Shown here one piece after another: positions 1,834-24,309 of a stretch of 64,000 nucleotides of DNA; position 1 is the stretch's first letter, and each line of letters begins with the position of its first letter. This DNA is from Gammaproteobacteria bacterium. Lineage in GTDB: Bacteria; Pseudomonadota; Gammaproteobacteria; HK1. Location: assembly GCA_965222535.1 (NCBI GenBank), contig OZ244957.1, forward strand, positions 1,539,550-1,603,549, given 5' to 3'. A model generated the notes under the pieces. The model ran no database searches. It had not been told where the DNA came from and saw only the letters and a list, made by a program, of their open reading frames with translations. The translations under genes and the position numbers were made by a program.

Positions 1834-1872
1834 TTCGTTCGAACAAACAAAAGTCTCCCGGTAACCATTCTC

Positions 1873-2355: not shown

Positions 2356-2523
2356 TCGGATGTCAACGCAAAGCTAAAAGGTTCCCTTTTTTGTCGTAAC
2401 TACCTACCCCCAAGCGATAGGCATAGGGCAACCTAAGGACAGGTTGCTTGAATCCAACGTCAGGTTACGGCACTGACGATCGCTATTACGATACTGATAC
2501 CCGCTATTGCCCACGCTATCTTC

Positions 2524-2976
2524 TTATCGCGCCTTTCTACCCTTTCTCGCTCCTCCGCCTATCCTTTCTCGCTCCTCCATACGATCCGACATTTTCACTA
2601 TTTCGGGCAAGTAGGCATCCTTGAAAGCATTATAATGCTCGATCAATAAGGGGAAATCGCCATATATTTCATCGTATATCTTGTGGCGGTTTTCAGGGTT
2701 CCTACGGGAGTTTGCAACTTTGCTATTAAGGCGGGCGATATCTTTGATTAGATCGGGATATTTTGCTACCAACACTTGATACGCTGCATCCGGGTATTCT
2801 TGGCGAACTACATCCAGCTCTTGAGATAATTCCAATAAGACACCATCAAACAAGTCGTGATACGCACAATAAAGCGCATGTCTTATTCGTTGTATCAGCT
2901 CGGGATGACGGTCTTCCTCTTCACACGTGAGAAATTCCATGACTGCCCGAAGTGCATATCGAAATTCATTCAGCAC
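2524..2976 (-). CDS. hypothetical protein
   Basis: 150-aa ORF with a GTG start in the low-GC islet. I recognise no family. It may be the distal part of a frameshifted larger gene (see findings). Confidence 0.4.
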   Translation of the reverse strand: MLNEFRYALRAVMEFLTCEEEDRHPELIQRIRHALYCAYHDLFDGVLLELSQELDVVRQEYPDAAYQVLVAKYPDLIKDIARLNSKVANSRRNPENRHKIYDEIYGDFPLLIEHYNAFKDAYLPEIVKMSDRMEERERIGGGARKGRKAR

Positions 2977-3080
2977 TTCAGCCGGAAATTCTTTCTGGTG
3001 TGCTCATAGTCCTTACATCGGCCTGCAATCGGATTGTGCAACTGCGCCAGTTGTTGAATTTCCTTCTTTCGATCCATTGA

Positions 3081-3278
3081 TCAGATGCCAAAAAATTCTT
3101 TCAGCCTGACCATGCGCGCCGGTTGCTCTTCACGCATTTTTTGTATTTCTTCATCAGAGGTAACCATGCCCCTTTGAAGCAGAAGATTGCCTCTTGCCAA
3201 GCGCTGCATCCTCGATTCCGATATTTCGTCAAGGATGCGCTGTACCTTCTCCTCAACTGTATTATCTGCTTTTTTCAT
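3081..3278 (-). CDS. hypothetical small protein
   Basis: 65-aa ORF on the same strand as, and upstream of, 2524-2976. No family recognised. Confidence 0.3.
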   Translation of the reverse strand: MKKADNTVEEKVQRILDEISESRMQRLARGNLLLQRGMVTSDEEIQKMREEQPARMVRLKEFFGI

Positions 3279-4007
3279 GTGACTCTTCCAATAGCGTGGA
3301 CAATAATAAAATCAGAGGGGTATGAAAAACCACGAGGATTGCCCGCAAGGACTGAGGGGCAATTCTTTGGAGGGGCGTCAGACTGCATCCGATGTCGGAC
3401 GCAAGTCTGGCTGGGTAGCTTATAGCAAAGCTTAAAATCAAGGTTAGCCCCATTCTCTTCCGCCCCAAAGGCGGGGGCACTGGGCTTGTTGCAGCAGCGC
3501 CGTTCGGCTCCAAAACCGTGTCAAGCTTCGCCTGCCCTCACTCCTGTGGAATGGCTTTCTCCGAATGGGGGGAGGGCAGCGTAGAGAGCTTTTGCATATT
3601 CCTTACTACCAGCCGTATCTTTTATGGCTAGCTTCCGTAAAGTATATTTACAATATCAAGAATCAGCAATAACTTCTGATACTTTCACAAACAATCCATT
3701 TGTTTCTGTTTATGGCGTTATGAGGGCCGATAACAAATCCATAACTTATTGGTATTTATGAGTATTATTCTTACCTGTGAGTGTCGCATATCGCCGCAAA
3801 CGGCTTATTGCGAGACCATCAATGTTGAATTGACCGACACGATTTTGCGCGAAGCCGTGAAGCTGTATCAGGAGTTGATCTTCCCAACCCTACACAGCAG
3901 TGATGCCTAGGGTTGCCAATACAGTGCCGAGAACGTCGCAACGCCAACCGGATTCAAACACATTTACAACACCCTGCGGGAGGGGGCTGGCGCCTGTCGG
4001 GCCGACC

Positions 4008-4064
4008 TTCAACAGCCGGACAAACTCAAGCCAGCTGCAGCTCCTGAAAGCGGCGTTGCGGTGC
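4008..4064 (-). pseudogene. degenerate copy of the 3' end of rsmA
   Basis: About 47 of 57 nt match 4899-4954, the true rsmA 3' end. The minus strand reads APQRRFQELQLA then a stop caused by a 1-nt insertion, against APQRRPQDLQLAEFVRL in RsmA. Confidence 0.6.
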
Positions 4065-4068
4065 TTTG

Positions 4069-4356
4069 TCAGGCGGCGTCGAACGCAACTTTTTGGACAC
4101 CTGAAAGATCGGCTACTTTCCTCGCTAAATATAGGTCATAGTTGTGCTGCATCGCCAGCCAACTCTCTGGAGAGCGGCCCAGCCCCTTGGATAAACGTAG
4201 CGCCATTTCTGGGCTTATCCCGCTGCGCTCGCTAATAATGCGCGTGAGGGTCGAAGGGGACACCCCCAAACTATGTGCCAACGAGCGAATGCTGATACCG
4301 AACGGCTCGATGTAGGTGGCTCGGATAAACTCCCCTGGATGTGGAGGATTGTGCAT
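4069..4356 (-). CDS. higA: HigA-family antitoxin (XRE-type HTH)
   Basis: MHNPPHPGEFIRATYIEP...ISIRSLAHSLGVSPSTLTRIISERSGISPEMALRLSKGLG is the classic HigA/VapI pattern. The ATG at 4356 lies 1 nt after the higB stop. Confidence 0.85.
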   Translation of the reverse strand: MHNPPHPGEFIRATYIEPFGISIRSLAHSLGVSPSTLTRIISERSGISPEMALRLSKGLGRSPESWLAMQHNYDLYLARKVADLSGVQKVAFDAA

Positions 4357-4357
4357 A

Positions 4358-4636
4358 TCAGTGATAATCCGTGTAATCTGAAACGTGTACGTTGCCGCCC
4401 TTGAACTCAAATGTAAGCCGCCAGTTTCCGCTAACCCAAATTGACCAGCGCCCCTTCAAGTGCCCCTTGAGAGGGTGGAGTCGGTAGCCCGGAATATCCA
4501 TATCGTCAACGCTCTGTGCGGTATCTAGCGCCGCCAGTTGTAATCGAAGTCTGCCGGCATGCTGGGTCTGGATCCCAGATCTAGCACCGCTTTCAAAGAA
4601 CCGTCGAAGCCCCTTGTGCTGGAAAGACGTGATCAC
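4358..4636 (-). CDS. higB: HigB-family (RelE-like) toxin
   Basis: 92 aa. MITSFQHKGLRRFFESG...YRLHPLKGHLKGRWSIWVSGNWRLTFEF matches the plasmid-maintenance killer HigB pattern. The toxin precedes the antitoxin, as in hig loci. Confidence 0.85.
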   Translation of the reverse strand: MITSFQHKGLRRFFESGARSGIQTQHAGRLRLQLAALDTAQSVDDMDIPGYRLHPLKGHLKGRWSIWVSGNWRLTFEFKGGNVHVSDYTDYH

Positions 4637-4674
4637 GCACTAAGTATAGCTTGTTGCGCATCACGCAACAAGCT

Positions 4675-4855
4675 GCCTAGCGCCGTGCATGACCGAGGGC
4701 GGTAGTAAGGCTCTGGGATGGTTTAATATTTTAATCCTCAAACTGCACAAGCAATGCTTGGCAGTTGCGGAGAGATTTGCAGAAAAGACGTTTGTATTGG
4801 GGAAAGGGTGAGGGCGTGTTTAACCCACCCAAACGCGGTACCCCCAACTCCCAGT
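4675..4855. repeat. family-B composite intergenic repeat copy
   Basis: Shares long blocks with 52960-53120 (ctctgggat..tttaatattttaatcc..gcacaagc..ggcagttgcggagagatttgcagaaaaga.gttt.tattgggg.aagggtga.ggcgtgtttaac) and with 53148-53168. Confidence 0.8.
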
Positions 4856-6176: not shown

Positions 6177-6734
6177 ATGGCAAGAGGCATCAACAAGGCA
6201 ATCCTGATCGGTAATCTTGGTGCCGATCCAGAAACCCGCTATACCGCCAATGGCAGTGTGATCACCAATATCCGTATCGCCACAACCGATCAATGGCGCG
6301 ATCGTCAAAGCGGCGAGTTGCAGGAACGCACTGAATGGCATCGGGTGGTGTTTTTCGGTCGCCTCGCTGAAGTCGCCGCGGAGCACATGCGCAAAGGATC
6401 GCAATGCTACATTGAAGGCAGGATCCAGACGCGCAAATGGCAAACGCAGGATGGGCAGGATCGCTACAGCACTGAGATCATCGCCAGTGAGTTTCAATTC
6501 CTCGGCGGGCGCCCGTCCTCTGGCTGGCCCCCTGCAACCGACCACGGCGCGGGGGCGGCCCACGGCATGCCTCAGGAGGAGGTGGAGGGGGGGCTTGCGC
6601 CGGCGCCGCCTGAGCAAGCATCAAGCAATCCCCCAGCGGAACCACACCAGAGGCAAAGCCAGCCCCCAAGCCAACCCCAACCCCGAGCAGCGACCGGCGC
6701 CCCCCCCTTTGACGATGATGATATTCCGTTCTAA
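6177..6734 (+). CDS. ssb: single-stranded DNA-binding protein
   Basis: [25 protein letters not shown]-fold N-terminus, a Gly/Pro/Gln-rich linker, and the C-terminal DDDIPF tip. An RBS (GGGAGAAG) lies upstream. Confidence 0.97.
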
Positions 6735-6815: not shown

Positions 6816-9602
6816 TCAGGATTGAGGCTCTTTGCTGACCGAAACGCAGTTATTGATTCCCAGATCTTCGATGATCTGTATGAGTTCGCTCTGGAAGGCG
6901 TTGGCGATCGCCGCGTCAACGCTGACGCTGAGAGTGATGGCCGCCTTCAGGCCGTCGCCGGAACGCAATTTCGGGATTAGCTTGCTACCCATGCGGTTCC
7001 ACATTTCCGGCGGCACCTTGCCCGCAATGCAGATAGTGTGGCGCGCCCCAGCAATTTCTGGTGCGCCCTGCGCGGCGGGTTGCGGGGCGTCTGCTACGCC
7101 GCCCCCCTGAGGGTGCACGGTCGCCGCCGCTGCCGCCGCCACTTTGAGCGGCGTGGCGGGCATCGTCAGTGCGGCGGCTGTTTCCTTGCGCAACAGGAAC
7201 ACCCCGGCCTCGAACGTTACCTCGTCGGGGTCGATCGCTTCCTTGAACCAGATGCGTTGGTAGGTAGCGTCTGGCTGTTCCCCAGAGGCGAGGCCAAACT
7301 CGCCCTTTTCCACGCATTCGACGATCTTATTTTTGAGGGTGTGGTCGGGATCGAACAGCCGTGTCAGGGTGCCGTTGAGGAAGCTCTGGCGCAGGCCCGA
7401 GAGCGGCCAAGCACCCGTCGCTATAAGCGCGGGCGGCCAGTTGCGCTCCACATAGCCTGCGCCGACGGATTCGCTGAGCAGCGCCTGCGATTTGAGTGCC
7501 GTGGTGATGCGTCCGCACAGGCTCTCGCTGCTGCTGGCGTGCCCCACGCCAAGGTCATAGTGCGCGATCCCGTCCGTTTGATCCTTATCAGCCAGCACCA
7601 CATAGCGGTAGTCGCCCCAGATCTGGTCGCGGGCGACATCCTTGGCCTCGGCCGTCTTGTGCTTCAGGTCGGTTCGATCAAAATCGCTGCCCAAGGTGCC
7701 GGCGGCGACCTCTTGGGTGACGCGCTGCCAAGCCAGCCAGCGCGCTACCTTCTCTTGCAGCGTGCGCCCCGGTTCCTTGAGCGTGAACACCAACGCGCCC
7801 GGATAGAGGCGCGGTGCGGTGCCGCGGTGCTGCGTCCATTTGGCGATCTCCTTGCGCACCGCGGCATCATCGCCACTGGCGTTTTCTGGCTCGCTTACCA
7901 CCAAGGTCAGCCGCGGTAGGTCGGTGATGGCGCTGCTGTCGGTGGGAAAGAAGACACGCGGGATATTCGCCCCCGCATTGAACTCCCCCTCGATCAGATC
8001 GCGCAGGGCGGGTTTGATCTCGCTGTCTTCATCGAGTGCCGCGCGGCGATCGTTGACCACCTTTTGCAATGTCGGCGTGTGACCTATCTTGAAGCCATCG
8101 CTACCGACTTTGCGCAGGTAATAGGCGCGGCCTTCTAGGGTCAGGGCCGCATTGTCCACCGAGGTGGTATCAACCCCGGGCTCACCGAGGGCAAAGCGCA
8201 ACTCCATCCGGTGGGCGACCTTGTTCACCTGACCGCCAGAGGACTCGAACAAGATGGTAGTGCCGACGCGGCGGTGGATATCGCGCAGCGCCCCGGTGGC
8301 GTCCGCATCGAGGGCGCGTGCGTGGGCTTGCTCGCCGGCGATGTCGGAGTGGATAGCGGCAGATAGGCGCTCCTCGCCGACCTGCCCCAAGACCGTGCTG
8401 AGGAATTGCGGATCGTCGAGCGGTGCTGAGCCGAGGGTAATCAACGGCTCGTCGCGTGCCTTGGAAAAAGCGTCCCGGTAGGCACCGGAGAGCCACTGCG
8501 CCAGCATCGCCAGCGTGCCTCGCGTCTGTTGGAACTGCGCCAGCGCCTGCCATTTGCGCTGAAACACCGACAGCGTGGCGGGATGGAAGGGGTAGCAGGC
8601 GGCAAAGCGTTGGCGCAGGCGGGTACGCGCTTGGGTCTCGGTATTGGCGCTGTCCACCGCCGTCCACTCGGGCGGCAACTGCGCGCGGCGCTCGAAGCAC
8701 CAGTCGGCGTAAGCCTTGGCGACCTTGGTGCGCGTCCGCTCGTCGCCCAGCGTATCAAACAGGCGGCGGCGCACCACCTCGCTGATTTCGGCCTCGTCGT
8801 TGGCGATCAAATCCTTGGCAACGCGGCGCACCACTTTGGTAATCCGCTCCTGCCACAGTAAGTCGAAGTCGGTCATCTCAACTTCGCTGCGCGGCAGGCT
8901 GATCACCGCCGCGCTATGGGTGGTGGCTGTCATGGCGATGGTCAGGTTCTGGATGAAGGCATGAAACGGCTCGGCCAAGGTACGGTGGCGGTTGATGAAG
9001 TTCAACACTTCGTCAAACAGGACCAGCACCGGCGCGTCCGCGGCGGCGAAAATGCGCCCGAGCGCGGCGGTGCCGGGCGGCGCCTGCCTGGCATCCTTGC
9101 CCAGTGCGGCAACGCCGGCATCCCCGGCGATCTGCCGCGCTAAGTCGATCCACGGCATCTCGTGCCCGGCCTGCGGATCCCAAGCGCTGCCGACAAACAC
9201 CGCCACCTTGGCGTGGGGTGCTTTGCCGATCCGTGCCCGCTGGAGCAGCTCTGCCACCCCATCCAGCTTAGCGACGTCCGTACCCGCGGTGGCGATATGA
9301 TACAGCGTCGCCAAGGTGTGCGTTTTGCCGCCGCCGAACTGGGTCATCAGCGCCGTTACTGGCGGGGCGTTGAGCGTCTGCCCAGCCAAACGCCGCAGCA
9401 CCATGCCGGTGTGTTCGCGCAGCGCCCGCGTAAAGCAGGTGCGGGCGAAGAACTGCCGCGGGTCGAGGTAGTCGGCGGGTGCGTTGCCCGCCACCACTTG
9501 TTCAAGGTCGATGGCGAACGCGGCGGGGTCGAAAGAGCGCCCCTCGCGCACCTCCGCACGCGGGATGGCAGCGTGGTACCAAGGGGTTAGTTTGGACGGC
9601 AT
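6816..9602 (-). CDS. DUF499-type (BrxC/PglY-like) AAA+ ATPase, last gene of the defence operon
   Basis: 928 aa. N-terminal LTPWYHAAIPRAEVREGRSFDPAAFAIDLEQVV and Walker A TQFGGGKTHTLATLYH are DUF499 hallmarks. GGAG lies 7 nt upstream of ATG 9602. Confidence 0.85.
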   Translation of the reverse strand: MPSKLTPWYHAAIPRAEVREGRSFDPAAFAIDLEQVVAGNAPADYLDPRQFFARTCFTRALREHTGMVLRRLAGQTLNAPPVTALMTQFGGGKTHTLATLYHIATAGTDVAKLDGVAELLQRARIGKAPHAKVAVFVGSAWDPQAGHEMPWIDLARQIAGDAGVAALGKDARQAPPGTAALGRIFAAADAPVLVLFDEVLNFINRHRTLAEPFHAFIQNLTIAMTATTHSAAVISLPRSEVEMTDFDLLWQERITKVVRRVAKDLIANDEAEISEVVRRRLFDTLGDERTRTKVAKAYADWCFERRAQLPPEWTAVDSANTETQARTRLRQRFAACYPFHPATLSVFQRKWQALAQFQQTRGTLAMLAQWLSGAYRDAFSKARDEPLITLGSAPLDDPQFLSTVLGQVGEERLSAAIHSDIAGEQAHARALDADATGALRDIHRRVGTTILFESSGGQVNKVAHRMELRFALGEPGVDTTSVDNAALTLEGRAYYLRKVGSDGFKIGHTPTLQKVVNDRRAALDEDSEIKPALRDLIEGEFNAGANIPRVFFPTDSSAITDLPRLTLVVSEPENASGDDAAVRKEIAKWTQHRGTAPRLYPGALVFTLKEPGRTLQEKVARWLAWQRVTQEVAAGTLGSDFDRTDLKHKTAEAKDVARDQIWGDYRYVVLADKDQTDGIAHYDLGVGHASSSESLCGRITTALKSQALLSESVGAGYVERNWPPALIATGAWPLSGLRQSFLNGTLTRLFDPDHTLKNKIVECVEKGEFGLASGEQPDATYQRIWFKEAIDPDEVTFEAGVFLLRKETAAALTMPATPLKVAAAAAATVHPQGGGVADAPQPAAQGAPEIAGARHTICIAGKVPPEMWNRMGSKLIPKLRSGDGLKAAITLSVSVDAAIANAFQSELIQIIEDLGINNCVSVSKEPQS

Positions 9603-9712: not shown

Positions 9713-10654
9713 TTAGGGGCAACGCACTTTAGCGAAAAAATCCAGTGCCGGTTTTTTCAATCGGGCGAGGTTAGCATAAGCCACCGGCGCAAAATCCTGC
9801 TGCTGATCGCAGACGTGGTAGCGCAGCCCGTCGGTAACGATGAAGTCGCAGCCGACACCCAGACGGGTTACGTAATCCTGTGCTTGCTGTTTTGCACCTT
9901 CAAGGCCACTGCCAAAGCGTTTGGCTTCGAGCACGAAACGGCAGTGCGCCGAAGTACGCGGCAGCGTGCCAAACAGCGCGACGTCAATGTGGTGCCATTC
10001 CACGGCGATCCGCTCGGGCGGCCAGCCGAGGGCACGCAACAAGGGCACGACCAAATGGGTGACAATCTCGCTCTCGTTGGGTGCCTCGCCAAAACACGCC
10101 GGATCAGCGTAGAGTGCGGCGAGGTCGCACGCCAAACCGACCACCTCACGGAGTGCCTTGGGTGCCTCGTCAAGCGCCTCTTGGACGGGCGGCAAAGCCG
10201 GCAGCGGTGCCGTCTGCCAGTGGGTGAAGCCGGAGGCCAGGTAGGTCTTGGCATAGTTTGCTACCGCCCTATTTTGCACCAGCGAGCAGGGGTTGGTGCC
10301 AAATACGGGGCTGTCAAAGCGGTACGGCTCGGGCAGGCGAAACCAGCGTACGCGGCGGGCATGGCGCAGATCCAAACCGTCCACGTCATCAAACGCCTCA
10401 AGGCATTGGTAGCCGCCGGCAACCAGCCCGATTGCCTCCACCGTGTCATTGGCGGTACGCAGCAGCACTAGGTCGCCTTCACGCAGCGCCGCGGCAAAAC
10501 GCCGCACGGGATCCGCTGATGGGCCACTATCGCGCTGATCCGGACGGCCTTTGCCAATCAGTGCCACGCCGTACTTCAGGAAAACCTCGGCATAACGGCG
10601 GCGCTGCATTCCGCCGCAGATCTGCCACACCGCTGGGGGGCGTCCAGCGTTCAT
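9713..10654 (-). CDS. PD-(D/E)xK nuclease-fold protein (HsdR_N-like C-terminal domain) with an unassigned N-terminal domain
   Basis: The C-terminal half, SEIVTHLVVPLLRALGWPPERIAVEW..IDVALFG....FVLEAKRFG..LEGAKQQAQDYV, fits the type I R-subunit N-terminal / Mrr-like D...ExK pattern. ATG 10654 has GAGG 6 nt upstream and lies 13 nt after the methylase stop. Confidence 0.6.
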   Translation of the reverse strand: MNAGRPPAVWQICGGMQRRRYAEVFLKYGVALIGKGRPDQRDSGPSADPVRRFAAALREGDLVLLRTANDTVEAIGLVAGGYQCLEAFDDVDGLDLRHARRVRWFRLPEPYRFDSPVFGTNPCSLVQNRAVANYAKTYLASGFTHWQTAPLPALPPVQEALDEAPKALREVVGLACDLAALYADPACFGEAPNESEIVTHLVVPLLRALGWPPERIAVEWHHIDVALFGTLPRTSAHCRFVLEAKRFGSGLEGAKQQAQDYVTRLGVGCDFIVTDGLRYHVCDQQQDFAPVAYANLARLKKPALDFFAKVRCP

Positions 10655-11155
10655 CGGTACCTCGCGCTCATCGCGGCAGCACCAGCAGCAGCGCATCGAG
10701 CAGGCGCCTTTCCTCGCAGCCCTTGGGGTAGAGTGCCGAGAGGGCGTTGGCGAGGCGCAGGAACCCCCCGCCGCGATCCTGCTCGGCTTTCAGCAGGGCG
10801 CGCAAGGCGTGGGCGTGCCCGGCACGCTGCAACAACATCGCCGTATGCACGCGATCCAGCGTGGTGACGCTGCTCTGTACCGCGGCAGCGGCGTCAATCG
10901 CTGCCTTCTTTGCGGTGGGGCGGGTGCGCTTTGCGGCGGCGGCGCCCCTGTCGAGGGATAGCTCGCCCTGCGTGCTGCTCTCTAGCCGCGCGGCAGTGGC
11001 GCTGGCACCCGCTTTGCCGAACAGTTGTTCGGCACGCTTAGCCACCGGCAGCAGGTGCACCACGCCTTTGTCAAGTTTGATGATACGCTGGCTCGCAAGA
11101 TCGATCCCCATCGGCTGGGCGATGCGGCGGACGATGTCAAACGGCAGGCTGAAGC

Positions 11156-11250
11156 TCTTGCCGTTACCGTTGCTCTTGCCGTTGCCGTTACCGTTACCAT
11201 TGCCGTTGCCGTTGCCTTTGCCCTTGCCGTTACCGTTGCCGTTGCCGTTG
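11156..11250. repeat. in-frame (GCCGTT)n-type microsatellite encoding an Asn-Gly/Lys-Gly tract
   Basis: The plus strand is cttgccgttaccgttgctcttgccgttgccgttaccgtt... On the minus strand it encodes NGNGNGNGKGKGNGNGNGNGNGNGKSNGNGKS inside the methyltransferase. Confidence 0.9.
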
Positions 11251-13191
11251 GCGGGCGTGCTGCTCCGCAGCGTCCACAGGAACAACGCCGTCAGGCGTGC
11301 GTCCGCTTCTAGGGCGTCGGTGGTCGCCGCGTCGCTGCCGAGCACCCGCTCCAGGGCCGCACGGCTCACCACTTCCCAGACTTTTTCGAGGTATTCGGGC
11401 AAGCCGACCGCGTGGCCGGCGGCAGTCTCGACTGCGGCGTAGCGGCTAAACACCTCCAGTGCCGGGCCGATGCAGGCAAACACTAGGTCAGCACCATGAA
11501 TCCCCTCGCCCTGCAAGCGTTCAAACCACGCCGCGACACGCTGCTGCAACCCGCGCAGCACCGCTGCCCATTCGCCGATCGATGCCTCCTTGGGGCGCGG
11601 GCGGCAGATCAGATGGATACTGGTGGCAAGCGCCGCGGAGTCGCGTGCCCGCAGGCGCGATGCCATCTCGGTGGCAATTGGCCAAGAGGCGGTGATCGTC
11701 CAGCCGCCGCGGATCAGGCCAGACAGCAATGCCTCCCAGCCGGCGGTGGTCTTGTGGGCGAACACCACCGTACCGATGCCGTCCTCGCGCAGGATGCGGC
11801 GTCCTTCGGCAAAGGCTGCCGCCATGCCGCCTTCAAAGAATTGTTGGTCTTTTTCTGGGTAGCGCACCGCGTCCCAGTGCCTCATCTCGCACAGTTCTAA
11901 CCTTTTGGGGGTTAGTTGGTTGTCGGGGTCAAAGGGGTCACGTAACAGTGGATGGTTGGGCAGCGCACGCTTCAGCCAGACGAAAAAGAAATCCGAAAGA
12001 TCTGCGTAGGGAATGGCAAAGTAGTAGGGCGGGTCGGTGAACCACACCCCGGCGCTGTGGTCAGGCAGTGGATGCTCGGTGGCATCCGCGGATTGGACTT
12101 GGGCAGGTTTTTGCAATGGCTGATTGACCACCTGCGTAAGCCACTCAGTCTGCGTCTGAAAATCACCAGTAGAGCCACCAATGGGGTTAGACTCAGCAAA
12201 ATCCCATACGATTGGTAACGCTTGACGACCAAATGTGTCCATAAGTGACTCTCCAGAGGTCTTCCACCGGCAACCAGTGCTGTTCTGCATGGAAACCTTA
12301 TCCACGCAAAACGCCATTGTTGTCCGTACCACATCGCCGTCCTCACTGGACCACTTCCGCACCAACCTCACCAACGCCACCAACGCTACCTTCTGGCGGG
12401 CGGTGAACAGGTCGCCCCAAGTATTCATTCCATAAAGCGGTACGTTGAAGACCCCACTCATCAACGGCAAGGGCTCATCCGGTATCGGGCACAGCCCCTG
12501 CCGACCGCCCTGCTGCCACTCCGCTAGGATCGTCGCTGCCCGCTGCTGGGCGTGGTACACCGCGGCGTAGTCAGCAGCATTCGGCAGGCGGTAATGGCGT
12601 CCGCTCTGGCCGGGGCGCAGGGTTACCACCGCCGTCAGGCGCGCCCCGCCGCTGCGCTTGCCTTGCGCATCAAACACCGCATCGGCCCCGCCGCGTTGCG
12701 CCGCCAGTTGTGCCCGCACCCGCGGCGGCGGCAGCACCGTGCTGCAACACAGGCAGCGCGCCTTGGCACGTTCCACCGTGCCGCCGGCGACCGCGCTGTC
12801 GCTCACGGGGGCAAAGATCTCAAACGCGACCTGCGGCGGTGCACCTTCGGGGCGCACGACAGTGGTACGCAGCGCCCACTTGCGCTGGGGCTTCTTGCAC
12901 AGCCACAGCGAGCGCAGCAGCGGCATCTCGGCACCGCAGTGGGGCGCTTCACAGCGCACCGTACGCGCCCACAGGTAGGCAATCGGCGTGGCACCGAAAG
13001 GGTCGCTTGGGTACAGGTCGGCGAGCTCTTTTTCAGCCGCCGCCTTGATTGCCGCACCGGCGGTACGCAACTCGTGCGCCAGCCCCGCCCCGTGACGCGG
13101 GATGTCCGAAAGCATCACCTTCAGGATCAGCAGGGCGACCGGGTTCAGGTCGCTGGCAAATGCCTCGCAGCCGAGGCGCAACGCCTCCAGC

Positions 13192-13237
13192 GGGATCGAT
13201 CCGCCGCCGGCGAAGGGATCGATCCGCCGCCGGCGAA
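13192..13237. repeat. perfect 23-bp tandem duplication (2 copies)
   Basis: gggatcgatccgccgccggcgaa at 13192-13214 is repeated exactly at 13215-13237. It is followed by gggatcga (13238-13245), an 8-nt microhomology. Confidence 0.97.
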
Positions 13238-13659
13238 GGGATCGACCACCAGCGGCGACTCCTCGGGATGGGCGGCGCGTACCAGGGTGCGGGCGGCGGC
13301 GAGATAGGCGGGATTGGCAGCGTTGTCCCAGTTGGCACAGTCGGCAATGAAGTCCAGCAGGATCTGCCGTAGCCCCTCATCCGACTCGACTTTCTGCGTC
13401 CACCCCGCGGGGCGACCGTGCAGTGCCAGCAAAGCGGCGCGTGCGGCGGGCTTGAACGCCGGCGGGCAGTGCGTATCGCACGGGTCGGGCAGCAGCAGTG
13501 CCAGCAGCACCGCGCGCGATGAAGCCAGCGGGCGCCGTGCCCACCACAGATGCAGCGTCGAGGGATGCCCGTGGCGGATCGATTTTTCGCGTGCCGCGTG
13601 TTTCGATACCGCCGCAATCGGAAAATCGACCTCGGCGAGGCGCTTGCATTCCTTAGGGA

Positions 13660-16600
13660 TCATGGCGGCTCTCCATAGGGCGTCTCGCCCTCGTTGACCT
13701 GCATCGGTTGGGTCATGGCATCTACGTTTAGATAGTAGTGCTGCACCTTGCTGACCTCGTGCCAAGGATGCTTGGCGGGATCAAAGATCGGCTCTTGCAG
13801 CCGCGGTGTGGTGGCGCAGTGGGTAACAATGTAGAGCCAGTAGCAGTCGCGCCGATCCTCGGCCACGCGGCGCTCGTTGGGCGTTAGCAAGATGGTGCCG
13901 CTGGGTGCCGAGAGCCCTTTGACCTCGATCAGGCGCATCTCGCCCGAGCGCGTATCGAGGCTGGTGAGATCGTAGCCAACATTGCGGGCGCTGACATCCG
14001 TAACGCTACAGCCGCGGGCGCGCTCGTACCCTATCACCCGCTCCATGGCGAGGCGCTCGACGCTCAGATCCTGCCGCAGTTGGGTGATCTCGCGCGATAA
14101 ACGCTCAGGGTGAGGCAGTACCAGCACGCTGGTCAGGCGCTCAACCGCCTGCAACGACAGCGCCCGCTGGCGTTGCAACGCCAAGCGCCGCTGCGCACGC
14201 CGGGCGGTCAGATCGGCGTGCCGTTTCTCGGCTTTGGCAAGCCGCCCCTCGGCACCCTGTTTGTTGTCCTCAATATCGCCGACAGCACGCCCAATCTCGT
14301 CATCGGCGCGCGTAAGCAGCGCGGTCAGCGATAGCTCGACATGCTGTTCAATGCGCGCAACCTCGCTGTTGCGCTCGGCGCGCGTGGCCGTAAGAAAGGC
14401 CAGCAAGGCGTGCTGGTACAGCCAATCGAAGGGCTCTGGATCATCGGCAACGGCAGGCCGCTCGCACGGTGCCGCGGCGGGGCTGAAGTTCCCCAGCGCA
14501 CTTGGCTCGCGCAGTTGTGGCTCGGCACCGTGGCGTAGCTCGACGGCGAAAAGATTCTCGTGCACGACCTGGCCTAAGCCGTCCACCACCCGCGCGCGGA
14601 AAAAATCAATGCGTGCGGGCGCGGCGTGGGAGAGGGAGTAGAAACAAGCACCGTGACCGAAGGCTTCCGTGGCTTGAGCGCGTACATGGCGGCGGATCGA
14701 CTCGAACAGCGGGTGACCGGGCGTTACCCATTCAAGGTTGTGTTGCTCGGCGGTTTGCCGATCGGTGGAACAGCGCGGGTAGCGATCGGCGAGCCGCGGC
14801 AGCTTCCAATCCGGGGCGCGCTCGTAGCGCCGCAGCACCGCGGGGGTACGCGTCGGCTCGAAGGTATGCGGGCGATCGCCAACGACCTTAAGCGCGATGC
14901 CAGCGAAGCGTGCCGCCTCGCGCAAAAAACGCGCGATGCTCTCGGGCACCAAGCGGCGCTCTTGGGCACGTGCGCGGCGCTCAATAAGCATCGCCAAGTT
15001 GAGTTTTTTGGCAGCCAGCCCCTCTAAGGCATTGTGGCAGATGTTGCGAAAGCGGTGCTCGTCAACATCCCTTAGCAGGCGCTCCTCAAGGTCCGCATCG
15101 CCCAACTGACCGGCGTAATAATCGCGCAGCACGCGCTCGACATGCGCCGCAGGCAGCACCTCGCCGATCACGTTGAAGACCGCGTCATCGTCAAGCGCAT
15201 CGCGGATCTCTTGCAGCTTGTCGAACAGCCGTTCCAGTACCCGCCCCTCAATGGTGTTGGTGGCAACAAAGTTGAAGATCAGGCAATCCTTGAGCTGCCC
15301 ATAGCGGTGGATGCGCCCCATGCGCTGCTCAAGACGGTTGGGGTTCCACGGGATATCGTAGTTGAAGAGGATGTTGCAGCATTGCAGGTTGATGCCCTCG
15401 CCAGCCGCCTCGGTGGCCACCAGCACCTGGATCTGGGCTTCACGGAACTGCTGCTCAGTGTGGATGCGGGTGCCCTCCTGATCGCGCGATCCGGGTTTCA
15501 TCCCACCGTGGATGACCCCTACGCGAAACCCCCAGTGGTTAAGATTCTCGACCAAGTAATCAAGGGTGTCTTTGAACTCGGTGAAGATCAGCAGGCGGCG
15601 CTCGCGGTCGCCAAAAAAGCCTTCGTTTTTTAGCAGCGCTTTGAGTTTTGCCAGCTTCGCCTCGGCGTGACAACGCTCGACACCCACGGCTGCTTGGGTC
15701 AGCTCGCGCAGTTCATTGATCTCCTCATGCACCAGATCGGCGCTGTCAGCGAGGGTGATGGCTTCAAGCAGCCGCTCCAAGCGCTCACGCTCGCCTTCCT
15801 CCATCTCCTCCATCTCCTCTAAGTCGGGGATCTCTGGCGGAGCCCTCTTGGCGAGGCCCTGCGCTTCTTTGAGACCGTGCGCAAGACGCCCGGCGCGATT
15901 CTCAAGGCTGCGCCGCATGGCGCGGGTGCTGGAAGCCAAGCGCCGCTGGTAGAGCGCCATCAGGAAGCCCACGGCGCGCGCCCGCCGATCGTTACCGCGC
16001 GCCGCTGCGCGGGCGCTCTGGCGCTTTACAAAGCGCGTGATGTCGCGGTACAGATCAAGCTCCGCGGCGTCAATCAAAAACCCGACAGTGCGCGGAATGC
16101 GGCGCGTGAAGATCTTGCGTGCGACAAAGGTCCCGGCGGCGGTGCGCTCGGGAAAGTCGATCATCGCCTCCTTGGTGCGGCGCAGGTAAAACGGCGCACG
16201 CTGGTGCTTCATCGCCTCTTTGATCGACGAAACGTCAGCGTAGGCGTCGCGGTCGAGTAACTGCAAGAAGAGGGTGAAGTTGAGCGGATCGCCTTTGTGC
16301 GGCGTGGCGGTCAGCAGCAGGCAGTGATCGGAGGTATCGCGCAGTAGCTCGCCGAGCTTGTAGCGCTGGCTCTTGTGGCTCTCGTCGCGCGCTGACATGC
16401 GGTGCGCTTCGTCGATGATCACCAAGTCCCAGTGCACCTGCTTGAGCCCCGGCAGGATGTCGTGGCGCTTGGCGAGGTCGAGCGAGGTGATCACCTTGTT
16501 CTGCTCAAGCCACTGGTTGACGCCGAACTGGTCGCGCAGGTCGCTGCCCTTGAGCACCAAGAAGGGCTCGTCGAACTTCTCCTTGAGCTCGCGCTGCCAC

Positions 16601-17079
16601 TGGAAAGCCAAGTTAGCCGGAACGACAATCAGGATGCGTTCGGCAAGGCCGCGCAGTTGCAGCTCGCGCAGCAACAGCCCGGCCATGATGGTCTTGCCAG
16701 CGCCAGCATCGTCAGCCAACAGGAAACGCACGCGGGCGAGCTTCAGCAAGTGCTCATAGACTGCCTCAAGCTGGTGCGGCAGCGGGTCAACACGCGAGAT
16801 CGAAAGGCCGAAATAGGGATCGAACTCCCAAGCAATAGCGAGCGCCTGAGCCTGCAAGCCGAGCCGCAGCAAGGCACCGTCGGCACCGTAATCAAAGGCC
16901 GCCTCTTGGATGGTAAGCGACTTTAGCTCCTCCGCCGACAGGTTGACCTTGCGAAAACGCTCGCTCTGGACGCCGACCAAGCCAACGCTCCAAGTGCCGC
17001 TGGGGGACAAGCGCACTGTCTCAACCCGCATCGGCTCACTGAACAGGTCGCCGGTCAGGATTTGGCCGGTGCTGATCAC
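13660..17079 (-). CDS. SNF2-family helicase fused to a C-terminal DUF3883 (PD-(D/E)xK-like) domain, first gene of the defence operon
   Basis: 1139 aa. Helicase motifs LLADDAGAGKT, VIIDEAHRM, LLLTATPHKG and QRMGRIHRYGQ. C-terminal GYDLTSLDTRSGEMRLIEVKG...LTPNERRVAEDRRDCYWLYIV matches DUF3883. Its stop overlaps the methylase ATG as ATGA at 13660-13663. Confidence 0.9.
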   Translation of the reverse strand: MISTGQILTGDLFSEPMRVETVRLSPSGTWSVGLVGVQSERFRKVNLSAEELKSLTIQEAAFDYGADGALLRLGLQAQALAIAWEFDPYFGLSISRVDPLPHQLEAVYEHLLKLARVRFLLADDAGAGKTIMAGLLLRELQLRGLAERILIVVPANLAFQWQRELKEKFDEPFLVLKGSDLRDQFGVNQWLEQNKVITSLDLAKRHDILPGLKQVHWDLVIIDEAHRMSARDESHKSQRYKLGELLRDTSDHCLLLTATPHKGDPLNFTLFLQLLDRDAYADVSSIKEAMKHQRAPFYLRRTKEAMIDFPERTAAGTFVARKIFTRRIPRTVGFLIDAAELDLYRDITRFVKRQSARAAARGNDRRARAVGFLMALYQRRLASSTRAMRRSLENRAGRLAHGLKEAQGLAKRAPPEIPDLEEMEEMEEGERERLERLLEAITLADSADLVHEEINELRELTQAAVGVERCHAEAKLAKLKALLKNEGFFGDRERRLLIFTEFKDTLDYLVENLNHWGFRVGVIHGGMKPGSRDQEGTRIHTEQQFREAQIQVLVATEAAGEGINLQCCNILFNYDIPWNPNRLEQRMGRIHRYGQLKDCLIFNFVATNTIEGRVLERLFDKLQEIRDALDDDAVFNVIGEVLPAAHVERVLRDYYAGQLGDADLEERLLRDVDEHRFRNICHNALEGLAAKKLNLAMLIERRARAQERRLVPESIARFLREAARFAGIALKVVGDRPHTFEPTRTPAVLRRYERAPDWKLPRLADRYPRCSTDRQTAEQHNLEWVTPGHPLFESIRRHVRAQATEAFGHGACFYSLSHAAPARIDFFRARVVDGLGQVVHENLFAVELRHGAEPQLREPSALGNFSPAAAPCERPAVADDPEPFDWLYQHALLAFLTATRAERNSEVARIEQHVELSLTALLTRADDEIGRAVGDIEDNKQGAEGRLAKAEKRHADLTARRAQRRLALQRQRALSLQAVERLTSVLVLPHPERLSREITQLRQDLSVERLAMERVIGYERARGCSVTDVSARNVGYDLTSLDTRSGEMRLIEVKGLSAPSGTILLTPNERRVAEDRRDCYWLYIVTHCATTPRLQEPIFDPAKHPWHEVSKVQHYYLNVDAMTQPMQVNEGETPYGEPP

Positions 17080-17741: not shown

Positions 17742-18536
17742 TTATGTTTTATTTTTCGCATTGGTAGGAATTGAAATAGATGAGTTAAACTCTACAAGAT
17801 TCTTCCAATCAATTGCTCCATTGCTATCAAAAAACATGTTTCCAAATTCCAATGTGAACATATTGATTCGATTTGAATATGCATTAATAAAGTCATCATT
17901 TCTTTCTTTAGCTTTGTGACCTAGCGGTTCTATTATATTGGTATAAAGACTCTTGTTGCCTGATATGAATTCCCAAAAATTTTGACCGCAGTATTTGTAA
18001 TAATCTCCTTTATCTGATTTGTTATCACGACCATAACAACATCCATTCACACATACGATATTCAATTTTGAATTACTAGTTCTTAATATACGCTGTGCTG
18101 TTTTAAAGTCAGATTTCATCTTGGATATTTGACTGCTATTTCCCCAATTAGGCCCAGATTTTATATTCACAATATATCTTATATTATCGTAGTCAAATTC
18201 TAAGTCTATTCCTTGTATGCCTGATTTCCATCCTCCATAAATTTTGTTATTTATGAATATTGCAAGCCCCTCTAACCAGTCGCCAAATATTGTCTCTTCA
18301 TTAGATGAAATATGCGCATCAACAAGCCCCTTAACTATTTCTTCAGATGTCAAAACATGCTTTGCTCTAAATAAATATGGATTTTTTCTTTTGAGGACTT
18401 TGCTAAGACTCAGAGTATCAAGGTTTGATATTCTTTTCTCATGAAAAATTCCGATGGTGTCTTCAACGTACTTGATTACATCATTCAGATCGATTGGTTT
18501 CATATTTAACCTTTGGTTCAAGTAAGAATAGCTCAA
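17742..18536 (-). CDS. putative type II restriction endonuclease (family not confidently assigned)
   Basis: Low-GC ORF lying immediately downstream of, and overlapping, a DNA methyltransferase gene. ATG 18503 (MKPIDL) is an alternative start. KRKNPYLFRAK and IDLEFD...IVNIKSGPNW resemble small type II REases I recall from the Eco47II/TdeIII/PmeII-like groups. Confidence 0.55.
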   Translation of the reverse strand: MSYSYLNQRLNMKPIDLNDVIKYVEDTIGIFHEKRISNLDTLSLSKVLKRKNPYLFRAKHVLTSEEIVKGLVDAHISSNEETIFGDWLEGLAIFINNKIYGGWKSGIQGIDLEFDYDNIRYIVNIKSGPNWGNSSQISKMKSDFKTAQRILRTSNSKLNIVCVNGCCYGRDNKSDKGDYYKYCGQNFWEFISGNKSLYTNIIEPLGHKAKERNDDFINAYSNRINMFTLEFGNMFFDSNGAIDWKNLVEFNSSISIPTNAKNKT

Positions 18537-19395
18537 CAGATGGAATTTGAGCTTTCACCATTTTATAATATTCTGGGACTACTTCTATCCCAATCGAATT
18601 TCTATGCATTTTATTTGCAACAATATTGGTTGTTCCAGAACCCATGAAAGGGTCTAACACCGTGTCGCCAACTTTAGTAAATAACTTTATAAACCATTCT
18701 GGTAAACTTTCAGGAAATGCAGCACTATGATTTTTATTGTTACACTCTGTAGATAAATGAAGAACATTTGTTGGGTATGCTTTATCTCTTGTTAGCCAGT
18801 TAGATATATTTTTTCCGAAACCACTTCCAACCTTAGACTCATCCCTTATTTTATCTGTTTCACTAAGATTTTTTAATCTTGTTTTTGCCCAGTCTCCCAT
18901 AGGCACCATGACCGCTTCTTGATACATGTTAAAATTTTTATTTTTATTAAATTGTAGTAACCGCTCCCAGGCATCCCTGAACCTATTTGGCCACTTACCG
19001 GGGTAACAGTTTTTTTTGTGCCAGATAAATTCTTCCGTCCACAACCATCCTTGCTTTTTCATGGCAAGGATTAGTTCCATTATATATGTACTCCTTTCGC
19101 CACTTACCACTTTCTCTTTGATATTGAGAACAAAGGTTCCTTTTGGTTTAAGAACCCTCAACATCTGTTCCGTCTTGGGTAAAAACCAGTCTACATAACC
19201 ATCGGGATGAATTCCTCCATATGTTTTTTTTCTCTGATCAGCATATGGTGGAGAGGTAAAAATAAAATCCACTGAATTATCAGATATTTCTCTTAGAATA
19301 TTCTGACAGTCTCCAAGGTACAAATCGTGTTTTATTTCCATTCTAATCTCTTCAAATCTGTATCTTTCTTGTGTTTCTATGGAACACTTACTCAT
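18481..19395 (-). CDS. beta-class N4-cytosine or N6-adenine DNA methyltransferase (SPPY type)
   Basis: Motif IV DFIFTSPPY precedes motif I DPFMGSGTT, which is the beta-class order. ATG 19395 is the IS256-derived start codon (MSK...). An internal ATG at 19341 (MEIKHDLYLGDC) may be the native start. Confidence 0.85.
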   Translation of the reverse strand: MSKCSIETQERYRFEEIRMEIKHDLYLGDCQNILREISDNSVDFIFTSPPYADQRKKTYGGIHPDGYVDWFLPKTEQMLRVLKPKGTFVLNIKEKVVSGERSTYIMELILAMKKQGWLWTEEFIWHKKNCYPGKWPNRFRDAWERLLQFNKNKNFNMYQEAVMVPMGDWAKTRLKNLSETDKIRDESKVGSGFGKNISNWLTRDKAYPTNVLHLSTECNNKNHSAAFPESLPEWFIKLFTKVGDTVLDPFMGSGTTNIVANKMHRNSIGIEVVPEYYKMVKAQIPSVELFLLEPKVKYETNRSE

Positions 19396-19497
19396 AGTGG
19401 CGACTCTTCTTATATTGATGGGGTGGTTTATAACTTCCAATCAATCAGAGTCGCCGCTCTTTTTCAATCCCTCATACACCACTTTCAGTTATAGCTC
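19387..19497. mobile_element. solo end of an IS256-family element (IR plus 5' leader and the first 3 transposase codons)
   Basis: About 90% identical to 47716-47827, the transposase-proximal end of the intact IS at 46441-47827. Homology stops after ATG AGT AAG. Confidence 0.85.
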
Positions 19498-19771: not shown

Positions 19772-19939
19772 TGAGGTTCCCAGAAAATAGTGGGTGATTG
19801 GCGAGAATGTGTCAATAGTGCTCGCCGCAGGGCGGCTGCACGCCAGTGCTTGGGGTTGATAGGGGAGAAGGTTGGCGCTGGACTTTCGCCGTTGATTTGG
19901 TTATCTTTGGTGCACTTGCCAACCCCAGAGAATAAACCG

Positions 19940-20272
19940 ATGCGCCTTGTTGTTGATGCAAAAACGATCGCCGTGGATGAGGACGGCTACCTTGCCTGCG
20001 CCGCCGATTGGAACCCCCAGGTCGCCGCTGTCATCGCCTGCGGGGACGATTGCGAGCTTAGCCCCGACCACTGGGAAGTGATCCATTTTCTGCGCGAGTA
20101 CTATGCCGAACATCAGATGACGCCGGCGATGCGCGTACTGACTCAGGCGATCGCCAAGCGCTTGGGGCACAGCAAAGGCAATACCCGCTATCTGTACCAA
20201 CTGTACCCTGCGGGGCCGACTAAACAGGCCACCCGCTACGCGGGCCTGCCAAAGCCGATCAGCTGCATTTGA
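19940..20272 (+). CDS. TusE/DsrC-family sulfur-relay protein
   Basis: 110 aa. VDEDGYL...W...A, HWEVIHFLREYY, and a C-terminal GLPKPISCI with one conserved penultimate Cys. True DsrC has a second Cys about 10 residues upstream, so this is closer to TusE. Confidence 0.75.
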   Translation: MRLVVDAKTIAVDEDGYLACAADWNPQVAAVIACGDDCELSPDHWEVIHFLREYYAEHQMTPAMRVLTQAIAKRLGHSKGNTRYLYQLYPAGPTKQATRYAGLPKPISCI

Positions 20273-21552: not shown

Positions 21553-24309
21553 ATGACCGATATTGCAAAAGAAATCCTCCCGATCAACATTGAAGAGGAG
21601 ATGAAACAGTCGTATCTCGATTATGCGATGAGCGTAATCGTCGGGCGTGCGCTTCCCGATGTGCGGGATGGCCTGAAACCAGTGCATCGCCGCGTATTGT
21701 ATGCGATGAGCGAACTCGGTAACGACTGGAATAAGCCGTATAAGAAATCGGCCCGCGTGGTGGGCGATACGATCGGCAAGTACCACCCTCACGGCGAGGC
21801 CTCGATCTATGATGCCCTCGTGCGCATGGCGCAGCCGTTTTCGATGCGCACGCCATTGATCGACGGGCAGGGTAATTTCGGCTCAGTGGATGGCGATTCC
21901 CCAGCGGCGATGCGTTACACCGAGGTGCGCATGGCGCGGGTAGCGCACGAGATGCTGCACGACCTCGATAAAAACACCGTTGACTTCGCTCCCAATTACG
22001 ACGAATCCGAACACGAGCCACAACTGCTACCAACGCGCGTGCCCAATTTGCTGGTCAACGGCTCGGCTGGCATCGCGGTGGGTATGGCGACCAACATCCC
22101 GCCGCATAACCTGTCTGAAGTGGTCGACGCCACGGTGGCGCTGCTCGACCAGCCGGCGCTTGGCATCGACGAGCTGATGCACTATCTGCCGGGGCCGGAT
22201 TTCCCGACCTGTGGCATCATCAACGGCGCTGATGGCATCAAACAGGCGTATCACACGGGACGTGGGGTTATTTATGTACGCGCCCGGGCGGGCTTGGAGG
22301 AGGACGAAAAAAGCGGGCGTCAGCGGTTGGTGGTAACTGAGTTGCCGTATCAGGTCAATAAGGCGCGCTTAATCGAGAAGATCGCCGATCTGGTCAAGCA
22401 GCGCAAGTTAGAAGGGATCGCCGAGTTGCGCGATGAGTCCGACAAAGACGGCATGCGGATGGTCATTGAACTTAAGCGCGGCGAGCAAGCAGAGGTGTTG
22501 CTCAACAACCTGTATCTGCATACGTATATGACGAGCAGTTTCGGCATCAACCTAGTGGCCCTGGTGGATAACCGCCCACTGTTGCTGAACCTGAAGCAGA
22601 TCCTGTCGGCCTTTATTCGCCACCGCCGGGAGATCGTTACCCGGCGCACACGCTTTGACCTGAATAAGGCGCGTGAACGCGCGCATGTACTGGAGGGTTT
22701 GGCGATTGCGCTGACGAACCTCGATGCGATCATCAACTGCATTCGCGACAGCGCTAATTCGGCGGCGGCGCGTAGTGCGCTGACCGCACGCAACTGGGCT
22801 GCAGGAGAGATCGAGGAACTGCTTGAACGCGCTGCTGACACTATGCTCAGTCGCACGGATACAGCAGCGGATGCGCCGCGCATCCGCGAAATGGGCCACG
22901 CAACGGGACTTGTCGAGGGCGGTTACCGCCTGTCAGGCCCGCAGGCACAGGCCATCTTGGATTTACGTCTGCATCGTCTGACCGCCCTTGAGCAACATAA
23001 AATCACTGAAGAATACCAGCAGATATTGCGCCACATTGAGGAGCTGATCCAGATCCTGGGGAATCCTGAGAGGCTGCGCACGGTGGTGCGCGAAGAATTA
23101 ATTGCGGTGCAGCAACAATACGCTGACAGCCGCCGCACCGAGATCCTCAAGCACCCCATTGGTCTCGAAACTGAGGATATGATCCCGCGCGAAAACGTGG
23201 TCGTTACGCTGTCCAAGGTCGGCTATATTAAATGGCATCCTTTGGACGCCTACCCCTCGCAACACCGCGGCGGCAAGGGGCGCGTGGCAGCCACGATCCG
23301 CGAGGCCGACCTGATCAAGCACGTTGTCGTTGCGCATACCCACGATACCGTGCTGTGTTTTTCCAGCCATGGGAAGGTGTACTGGAAGCGGGTGTTTGAG
23401 CTGCCGCAGGCGACCCGCACCGCACGCGGCAAACCGATTGTCAACTTGTTGCCGTTGGCAGCAAACGAACGCATTAATGCGATCTTACCGCTGACCTCGT
23501 GTCACAGCGGTGGCTATCTGCTGATGGCTACGGCGCGCGGCTTGGTCAAGAAAACACCTCTTGCGCAGTTCCAGAGGCCGCGCTCCACAGGATTGATCGC
23601 GCTCAGTCTGCGCCCCGACGATTACCTGATCGGCGTCTTGGTAACGGAAGGCCGCCAAGGGCTGATGCTGGCTTCAAGGAATGGTCGCCTGATCCACTTC
23701 GACGAGCAGCAGATCCGACCGACCGGTCGCGGCTCTCAAGGGGTGCGCGGCATGCGTATCGCGGCTGACGATGAAATCATTGCGCTGATGGTTGCCAACC
23801 CGGATGGGATGGTGCTGAGCGCCACCGAGTACGGCTTCGGCAAATGCACCAAGGCGACCGCCTATCGTCAGCAGGGGCGTGGTGGGCGCGGGCTACTGTC
23901 GATCCGCGGCAGCGAGCGCAATGGGCGCGTGGTTAGCACGTTGTTGGTCGCTCCAGACGATGAGATCATGCTGATTACCGATAGCGGCAAACTGATCCGC
24001 ATGGCGGTCAGCGGCATCAGCGTCCTGGGTCGCACGACCCAAGGCGTGCGCTTGATCCGACTGGGAGACAACGACCTGCTGGCCGATGTTCAGTCGATCA
24101 TTGAAGCCGATGAAGGCGGTGCTGATGAAGGCGGTGCTGATGAAGGCGGTGCCGATGAAGGCGGTGCTGATGAAGGCGGTGCTGATGAAGGCGGTGCTGA
24201 TGAAGGCGGTGCTGATGAAGGCGGTGCTGATGAAGGCGGTGCTGATGAAGGCAGTGCTGATGAAGGCGGTGCCGATGAAGGCGGTGCCGATGAAGGCGGT
24301 GCTGCATGA
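21553..24309 (+). CDS. gyrA: DNA gyrase subunit A with a repetitive acidic C-terminal tail
   Basis: The N-terminus [39 protein letters not shown] and the QRDR-type [23 protein letters not shown] are present, and the gene is full length. The tail is (ADEGG)13. Confidence 0.97.
24106..24300. repeat. 13 x 15-bp tandem repeat (gc[tc]gatgaaggc[ga]gt) encoding (ADEGG)n
   Basis: Thirteen consecutive units with only three variable positions. The array ends 9 nt before the gyrA stop. Confidence 0.97.

Follow-up and report, generated by a model that had tools for sequence, protein, structure and literature searches.

A perfect 23-bp tandem duplication in the SAM-binding motif of hmaB: a probable recent slippage-generated null allele in an Hma/Type-1 BREX-related operon

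When a defence methyltransferase gene is broken by a perfect tandem duplication lying exactly in its cofactor-binding loop, is the duplication a recent inactivating lesion, a reversible on/off switch or an error of assembly? The question is raised by a stretch of 64,000 nucleotides from a gammaproteobacterium (assembly GCA_965222535.1, contig OZ244957.1, positions 1,539,550 to 1,603,549), referred to below as the window. On its sequence, the locus is assigned to the Hma or Type-1 DUF499-centred BREX-related (BR) anti-phage operons, with the gene order hmaA-hmaB-orf327-hmaC on the minus strand (17079-6816), and the duplicated gene is hmaB. An earlier interpretation made from the letters of the window (the sequence-only reading) had listed lesion, switch and artefact without choosing between them. 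The lesion is favoured here: the allele is probably a recent hmaB null that arose by slippage in an otherwise intact operon. An evolved switch found no support, since the substrate for the duplication is not conserved and no second two-copy allele was encountered.

On the plus strand, the 23-mer GGGATCGATCCGCCGCCGGCGAA is present as two perfect back-to-back copies (13192-13237) followed by 8 nt of a third, the whole repeat stretch (13192-13245) reading cagc GGGATCGATCCGCCGCCGGCGAA GGGATCGATCCGCCGCCGGCGAA GGGATCGA ccacc in its immediate context. The coding form of the unit is TTCGCCGGCGGCGGATCGATCCC. Copy 1 (13192-13214, minus strand) encodes FAGGGSIP in the downstream frame, and the identical copy 2 (13215-13237, minus strand) supplies the FAGGGSI codons of the upstream frame. 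The partial copy (13238-13245, minus strand; coding TCGATCCC) lies in the V-D-P codons; in the upstream frame it contributes the D and P codons (13238-13243), and copy 1 contributes the third base of the closing P codon. Tandem Repeats Finder described the same structure (period 23, 2.3 copies, 100 % matches, no indels, score 108), in agreement with what the sequence-only reading had reported. The repeat is real and not a chance match: given the base composition of the window, the number of perfect 31-nt self-matches expected by chance in 64 kb, at offsets of 7-60 nt, is about 1e-12. The window has one other perfect tandem of this class, an in-frame 15-bp array at the end of gyrA, and no further copy of the 23-mer, allowing up to three mismatches, was found elsewhere in the window. 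The related loci, 1.34 Mb in all, contained only about four perfect tandems whose period lay between 17 and 60 nt; one of these was a simple run counted at many periods, and none was inside the methylase motif.

As assembled, the coding strand reads GTG GTC GAT CCC TTC GCC GGC GGC GGA TCG ATC CCT TCG CCG. Because 23 is not divisible by 3, the frame is lost after motif I and a stop is reached 22 codons further on. The resulting 5' fragment (13145-13663, minus strand; 172 codons and a TGA at 13147-13145) contains the DUF1156 domain and keeps its native sequence through motif I, then ends in 22 out-of-frame residues, the second repeat copy being read as SPAADRSRWRRCASAARHLPAT and onward to the TGA; this is the termination point that had been given previously. 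The 3' remainder (10668-13214, minus strand) is a fully open shifted frame of 848 codons and a stop, which holds the target-recognition insert, motif IV (FTDPPYY) and the C-terminal helical domains. In this downstream frame no ATG, GTG or TTG comes before a TTG at 13181, which follows motif I and is 2 nt from a GGAGG, and therefore the SAM-binding loop and the catalytic DPPY motif cannot be present together in one product. Judged by this loss of frame, hmaB as assembled would be a null allele. Removal of one copy, as had been proposed, gives a single continuous open reading frame (ORF), which starts with the ATG at 13663, ends with the stop at 10668 and encodes 990 aa. The repaired protein and its 120 best homologues in the database share 62-69 % identity; nearly all of these homologues are 976-1035 aa long, and all but one (98 %) align over 100 % of the repaired protein.

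The repaired gene (10668-13663, minus strand) encodes a predicted DUF1156 N6-adenine methyltransferase, with matches to the PADLOC HmaB profile (E = 6e-115, 383 bits) and to Pfam DUF1156 (E = 2.4e-22), so that the earlier identification of a defence methyltransferase stands, for a gene that is frameshifted as assembled. The (D/E)PFxGxG sequence of amino-methyltransferases is motif I, the loop that binds S-adenosylmethionine (SAM). Such a loop is encoded by the duplicated segment, upstream of a catalytic motif IV of the form (D/N/S)PP(Y/F). Motif I was found once per locus in 79 of 79 related loci, being identical in 77 and DPFSGGGSIP in the other two, and these 79 motif-bearing loci span bacteria of many phyla as well as archaea. 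An alignment of 21 sequences was invariant from D141 to R155, save for the nearly invariant A144, and from F534 to Y540 (FTDPPYY, motif IV). This invariance bears out the claim that the duplication lies inside the SAM-binding motif. Two weak local matches also cover the motif, one to Pfam UPF0020 (RMKL-like methyltransferase; residues 124-157, E = 5e-4, below the cut-off) and one to the methyltransferase of PDB entry 1ws6 (residues 127-185, E = 0.07). Otherwise the PDB sequence search with HmaB returned only low-complexity noise from its NG-repeat, and the profile search returned no match. The AlphaFold2 model of HmaB built from the 21-sequence alignment was poor (predicted local distance difference test 47, predicted template modelling score 0.34).

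The NG-repeat is itself encoded by a tandem array: at 11158-11250 (minus strand), 15.5 copies of TTGCCG (plus strand; 82 % matches) specify an NG/NGK linker at about residues 797-828. This linker is variable across the family and constitutes a second, in-frame, slippage-prone tract in hmaB.

The partner genes show no comparable damage. HmaA (13660-17079, minus strand) matched its PADLOC profile with E = 8.7e-172 and 572 bits over profile positions 54-1131 of 1176, and its Pfam domains (SNF2-rel_dom 118-291, Helicase_C 477-594 and NOV_C 1007-1094) are those of a helicase-nuclease, with a SNF2 helicase and a C-terminal NOV_C/DUF3883 nuclease of the PD-(D/E)XK type; the gene for this presumed effector of the system appears intact. 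HmaC (6816-9602, minus strand), a predicted DUF499 AAA+ ATPase in the same operon, matched PADLOC with E = 7.7e-95 and 317 bits and Pfam DUF499 with E = 7.9e-12, and its gene also appears intact. Full-length homologues of HmaC, at about 52-64 % identity, come after hmaB in most of the related loci, and 80 related loci share the order hmaA-hmaB-(variable)-hmaC. The stop of hmaA overlaps the start of hmaB in an ATGA (13663-13660). No internal minus-strand promoter-like site that could uncouple hmaC from hmaB was found in the operon, a negative that amounts to weak evidence. The NCBIfam equivalogs associated with anti-phage function were not reached (DUF1156_antiphage 183 bits against a cut-off of 1000, DUF499_antiphage 105 against 1200), and the helicase scored 179 bits against the PLD model (cut-off 1100); because these cut-offs were missed, the operon is classed by sequence as related to, but outside, the DUF3780/PLD subtype. 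It thus resembles Hma/Type-1 BR systems in all three core profiles, in the defining domains and in a gene order with a variable slot before hmaC, and differs from them in its frameshifted hmaB, where related loci have an intact frame of about 980-1270 codons, and in the unrelated low-GC type II restriction-modification (R-M) system beside hmaA.

The variable slot is occupied by orf327 (9713-10696, minus strand; 327 aa), which overlaps the hmaB stop by 29 nt. No Pfam or NCBIfam family could be assigned to it, and its match to PADLOC PDC-S02 is marginal. A counterpart is kept (45-60 % identity) directly upstream of hmaC in about one-quarter of the 80 related Hma loci, and on this distribution orf327 may be an uncharacterised accessory component.

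How the duplication arose can be read from the reconstructed one-copy allele, the coding strand of which is GTG GTC GAT CCC TTC GCC GGC GGC GGA TCG ATC CCG CTG. It contains TCGATCCC twice, exactly 23 nt apart and in different codon phases (in the V-D-P and the S-I-P codons), and this 8-nt exact repeat at offset 23 is the longest in the reconstructed segment at any offset from 6 to 35. A tandem duplication with a unit equal to the spacing of two short direct repeats, and with a terminal partial copy of the same length as the microhomology, is the textbook outcome of slipped-strand mispairing. In an ancestor, the codon choice for V-D-P (G TC GAT CCC) and S-I-P (TCG ATC CC G) would have created the two 8-bp repeats; during replication the nascent strand would have slipped back from the second TCGATCCC to the first and recopied the interval, leaving a perfect 23-bp tandem duplication together with its 8-nt 'third copy'. 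Two other routes were considered and rejected. Hairpin-assisted slippage was set aside when folding of the one-copy region as single-stranded DNA proved no better than that of shuffled sequences (z = -1.7 and -0.7), and a gene-conversion donor was set aside on the lack of another copy of the 23-mer in the window.

Once formed, the duplication would have had two further consequences. About 2.45 kb of untranslated mRNA would probably lower expression of the co-transcribed orf327 and hmaC by polarity, leaving the upstream hmaA unaffected. Because the two-copy allele carries 31 nt of perfect tandem homology, it should also revert easily: precise loss of one copy would be far commoner than the original duplication, and rare revertants would be expected in any large population. 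Reversibility of this kind is a general trait of tandem duplications and is no evidence for a selected switch.

The age of the lesion can be gauged from the shifted frame. Of all possible point substitutions in its 848 codons, 2.9 % would create a stop; about 23 substitutions (0.9 % divergence) would give a stop with a chance of 50 %, and a divergence of about 4 % would raise that chance to 95 %. Because the frame is still open, the lesion is young on that scale, and with hmaA and hmaC looking intact it is probably young. HmaA, HmaB and HmaC keep all the residues that are invariant across 48, 74 and 55 full-length homologues, respectively (348, 174 and 193 columns).

Several observations weigh against a recent lesion, or weaken the case for it. 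HmaB is the sole deviant at six otherwise invariant columns, against a median of one. HmaA and HmaC are likewise raised, with four sole-deviant residues each, and because the three proteins are similar in this respect the pattern fits an isolated lineage better than decay specific to HmaB; the measure is biased by the absence from the set of a close relative of the window lineage, and is uninformative on relaxed constraint. The open downstream frame and the intact partner genes would be expected equally of a locus that regularly reverts, that is, a switching one. The polarity on orf327 and hmaC is one that we infer. Finally, the two-copy state is known from one assembly and its nearest homologues are distant: in the protein collection the best HmaB homologue was 69 % identical and the best GyrA, besides the source's own, 72 %, a scan of the genome collection yielded relatives at ≤66 % identity only, and the exact 31-mer common to both alleles had no match among metagenome contigs.

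Comparison with related loci, which the sequence-only reading had suggested as a check on the copy number of the 23-mer, gave one copy in 79 of 79 and hence no support for a switch. The longest repeat at offset 23 was 2-4 nt in 62 of these loci and 7 nt in one, and reached 8 nt only in locus L056, itself a one-copy locus. Two DPFAGGG-coding units spaced by 23 nt, sought with a degenerate pattern, had no match in 241 million metagenome records, the window itself being matched once as positive control. A signature-bearing stop-to-stop hmaB frame of at least about 980 codons was present in 76 of the 80 related loci (one cut by a contig end), and the remaining four, which missed the signature, nevertheless gave full-length tblastn alignments of hmaB. 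As hmaB frames are intact in related loci, disruption of the gene appears to be uncommon in the family. In three loci (L036, L053 and L066) the tblastn match to hmaB spans 1.2-1.4 kb more than the gene although the frame of about 1000 codons is intact, and extra partial hmaB-like sequence or insertions may lie nearby.

Phase variation would place these facts in a different light. On this account gain and loss of the 23-bp unit toggles hmaB, and orf327 and hmaC through polarity, between an active methylation-guided state and one that is either OFF or reliant on HmaA only, which could lower cost or autoimmunity or allow the uptake of foreign DNA. Loss of one copy does restore a full-length 990-aa gene, the 31 nt of perfect tandem homology favours reversion by slipped misalignment, no damage is seen in the 848-codon downstream frame or elsewhere in the operon, and other tandem arrays, those of gyrA and the hmaB linker, are tolerated by the genome. 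There are also precedents, and in the light of them the view that a duplication-based switch would be unusual is not supported. Pneumococcal capsule genes (cap3A, cap8E and tts) are described, in a passage of PMC4243769 citing Waite et al. (2001, 2003), as phase varying by reversible intragenic duplications; pglX of Streptomyces coelicolor (Pgl/BREX type 2) phase-varies through a G tract at 1e-2 to 1e-4 (PMC4365076); and frequent disruptions of pglX have been interpreted as phase variation (PMC9122589).

What makes phase variation unlikely in hmaB is the nature of the ON allele, which has an 8-bp microhomology and no repeat tract, so that ON-to-OFF changes would seldom happen and switching would be strongly asymmetric. 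Synonymous codon choice has produced the microhomology by accident, and it is seen in one of the 79 homologous loci; neither these loci nor the metagenome collection contained a second two-copy allele. Three copies (46 nt added) would still be out of frame and four (69 nt) would add 23 residues to the SAM loop, and because of this arithmetic the copy number would not cycle cleanly as in simple-sequence contingency loci. The hypermutable tract that such loci have in the ON allele and keep among orthologues is lacking here, where the ON allele has only the two 8-bp repeats. What hmaB does share with the cap3A type is a perfect tandem duplication within the ORF, the precise excision of which restores the frame.

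The pneumococcal duplications resemble that of hmaB in form: in both, a perfect tandem within the ORF inactivates the gene, its precise loss restores it, and no pre-existing simple-sequence tract is needed. In the pneumococcal genes, however, switching was seen experimentally with many independent duplications, whereas hmaB offers one allele in one genome; moreover, those genes determine a surface structure and hmaB encodes a defence methyltransferase. With pglX the locus shares the frameshifting-off of a BREX-type methyltransferase, but pglX has a homopolymeric G tract switching at 1e-2 to 1e-4 in both directions, in contrast to a one-off 23-bp duplication whose ON allele has no tract. The mod and hsd genes of phasevarions likewise have a repeat copy number within a methyltransferase ORF that toggles the frame, but their arrays are long, with units of 1-5 nt (occasionally longer), and are strain-conserved and varying, whereas hmaB has two copies of a 23-mer that are found in no relative. 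Isogenic populations of Mycobacterium tuberculosis, too, have been seen to contain copy-number variants of tandem repeats, at 1e-2 to 1e-3 per chromosome (PMC12817950). A frameshifting tandem duplication in a BREX-related methylase is therefore a fresh instance of known phenomena and not a new kind.

Somewhat less probable again is an artefact of assembly, polishing or consensus calling, or a minority allele caught in the consensus, the organism itself having a single copy and an intact hmaB. The source is apparently a single 2.76-Mb contig, that is, a long-read assembly. Small duplications are occasionally introduced by polishers that work in windows or chunks, and local alignments become ambiguous where there is microhomology, both of which speak for an artefact. 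No independent assembly of the source genome was found for a cross-check. HmaC, GyrA, the 172-aa HmaB fragment and orf327 gave no records when looked up as exact proteins, and the protein collection contained neither hmaB fragment though the source GyrA was present once; a missing hmaB record is, however, what pseudogene annotation of a real frameshift would produce. The duplication is also free of mismatches, and its limits coincide exactly with an 8-bp direct repeat that was already there, the mark of biological slippage; a repeat of 8 bp falls far short of what confuses modern assemblers. Nor are indel errors pervasive, as the nine other long genes of the window with a Pfam match are all matched essentially end to end.

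A bolder form of switching, in which the 23-bp unit is gained and lost appreciably often in the natural population, one copy giving methylation-guided Hma defence and two copies an HmaA-only nuclease mode (hmaB off, orf327 and hmaC lowered by polarity), is improbable to a further degree. If true, it would be the first phase-variable Hma/BR system, with a methyltransferase switch based on duplication rather than on a simple repeat, and would demonstrate genetically that the methylase is dispensable for self-protection.

A split gene that still functions, through programmed ribosomal frameshifting or as two cooperating polypeptides, has a very slight chance and was rejected on start-codon position and motif geometry: although motif I is complete in both frames (the duplicated unit spans it) and a GGAGG stands just upstream of the TTG at 13181, the downstream frame has no start before motif I, that TTG is only 2 nt from the GGAGG, a +1 shift would add eight residues to the invariant SAM-binding loop, no slippery heptamer is evident in the sequence and none of about 200 homologues examined is split at motif I.

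With a recent slippage-generated null allele as the favoured explanation, the question becomes how a cell would fare with it. The only component of Hma to have been tested experimentally is HmaA of Halomonas meridiana, which alone, under its native promoter, was non-toxic in Escherichia coli and protected against T4 by means of its nickase domain; the sensitivity of T4 grown in HmaB-overexpressing cells was unaltered, and hmaB is missing from about 15 % of hmaA loci (PMC11232893). Loss of the methylase therefore does not require that the restriction arm be off as well, as the sequence-only reading had supposed, and hmaA and hmaC show no secondary damage in the window. In the more recent classification, Hma-type systems are named DUF499-centred BREX-related (BR) systems; its authors infer, without experiment, that the methyltransferase protects self-DNA, and describe it as architecturally close to the methyltransferase of Type-3 BREX (PMC12839542). 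For BREX systems, which are the closest relatives that have been studied, a preprint (10.1101/2024.04.12.589305) reports that both defence and methylation need site recognition by the methyltransferase, and SAM. Because methyltransferase and SAM are themselves needed for defence in BREX, loss of the methylase may be simply the OFF state, and the most economical reading by this analogy is that the two-copy allele would simply turn off whatever in the system depends on the methylase. A real allele would mean that a cell can live with its HmaA helicase-nuclease intact and the cognate methyltransferase null, which would support the view, drawn from BREX and from Halomonas HmaA, of the methylase as recognition machinery and not a mere antidote. 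Beyond this, hmaB is one more inactivated defence gene.

The operon forms part of a defence island between ssb (6177-6734) and a dsrC-like gene (19790-20272). Directly upstream of hmaA (17742-19440, minus strand) are genes for an EcoO109I-like type II restriction enzyme (17742-18536) and an N6/N4 methyltransferase (18481-19440). The GC content per codon position of this pair is 0.30-0.41, compared with 0.56 for the window, and the hma genes have a GC content at third codon positions of about 0.75-0.79. Because its values are so far below those of the window, the R-M cassette is regarded, on composition, as a separate foreign insertion in the same island. A further stretch of lower GC (about 1000-4700) lies beside a tRNA gene (887-960) and contains short ORFs, one with a DUF2335 match and the others without a family, and a near-perfect 22-bp repeat of 1.9 copies (2537-2578); this stretch may represent a further element integrated at a tRNA gene.

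Two other genes of the window contain tandem repeats. At the 3' end of gyrA (21553-24309, plus strand), a 15-bp unit is repeated 13.3 times with 96 % matches (24109-24309) and encodes an acidic C-terminal tail, (DEGGA)x13, giving a GyrA of 918 aa compared with about 842-860 aa in most homologues. In the E2 gene of pyruvate dehydrogenase (44319-45968, plus strand), a 291-bp unit is present in 1.9 copies with 98 % identity (44322-44881), which correspond to duplicated lipoyl domains of the dihydrolipoamide acyltransferase; their near-identity suggests that this duplication is recent or has been homogenised.

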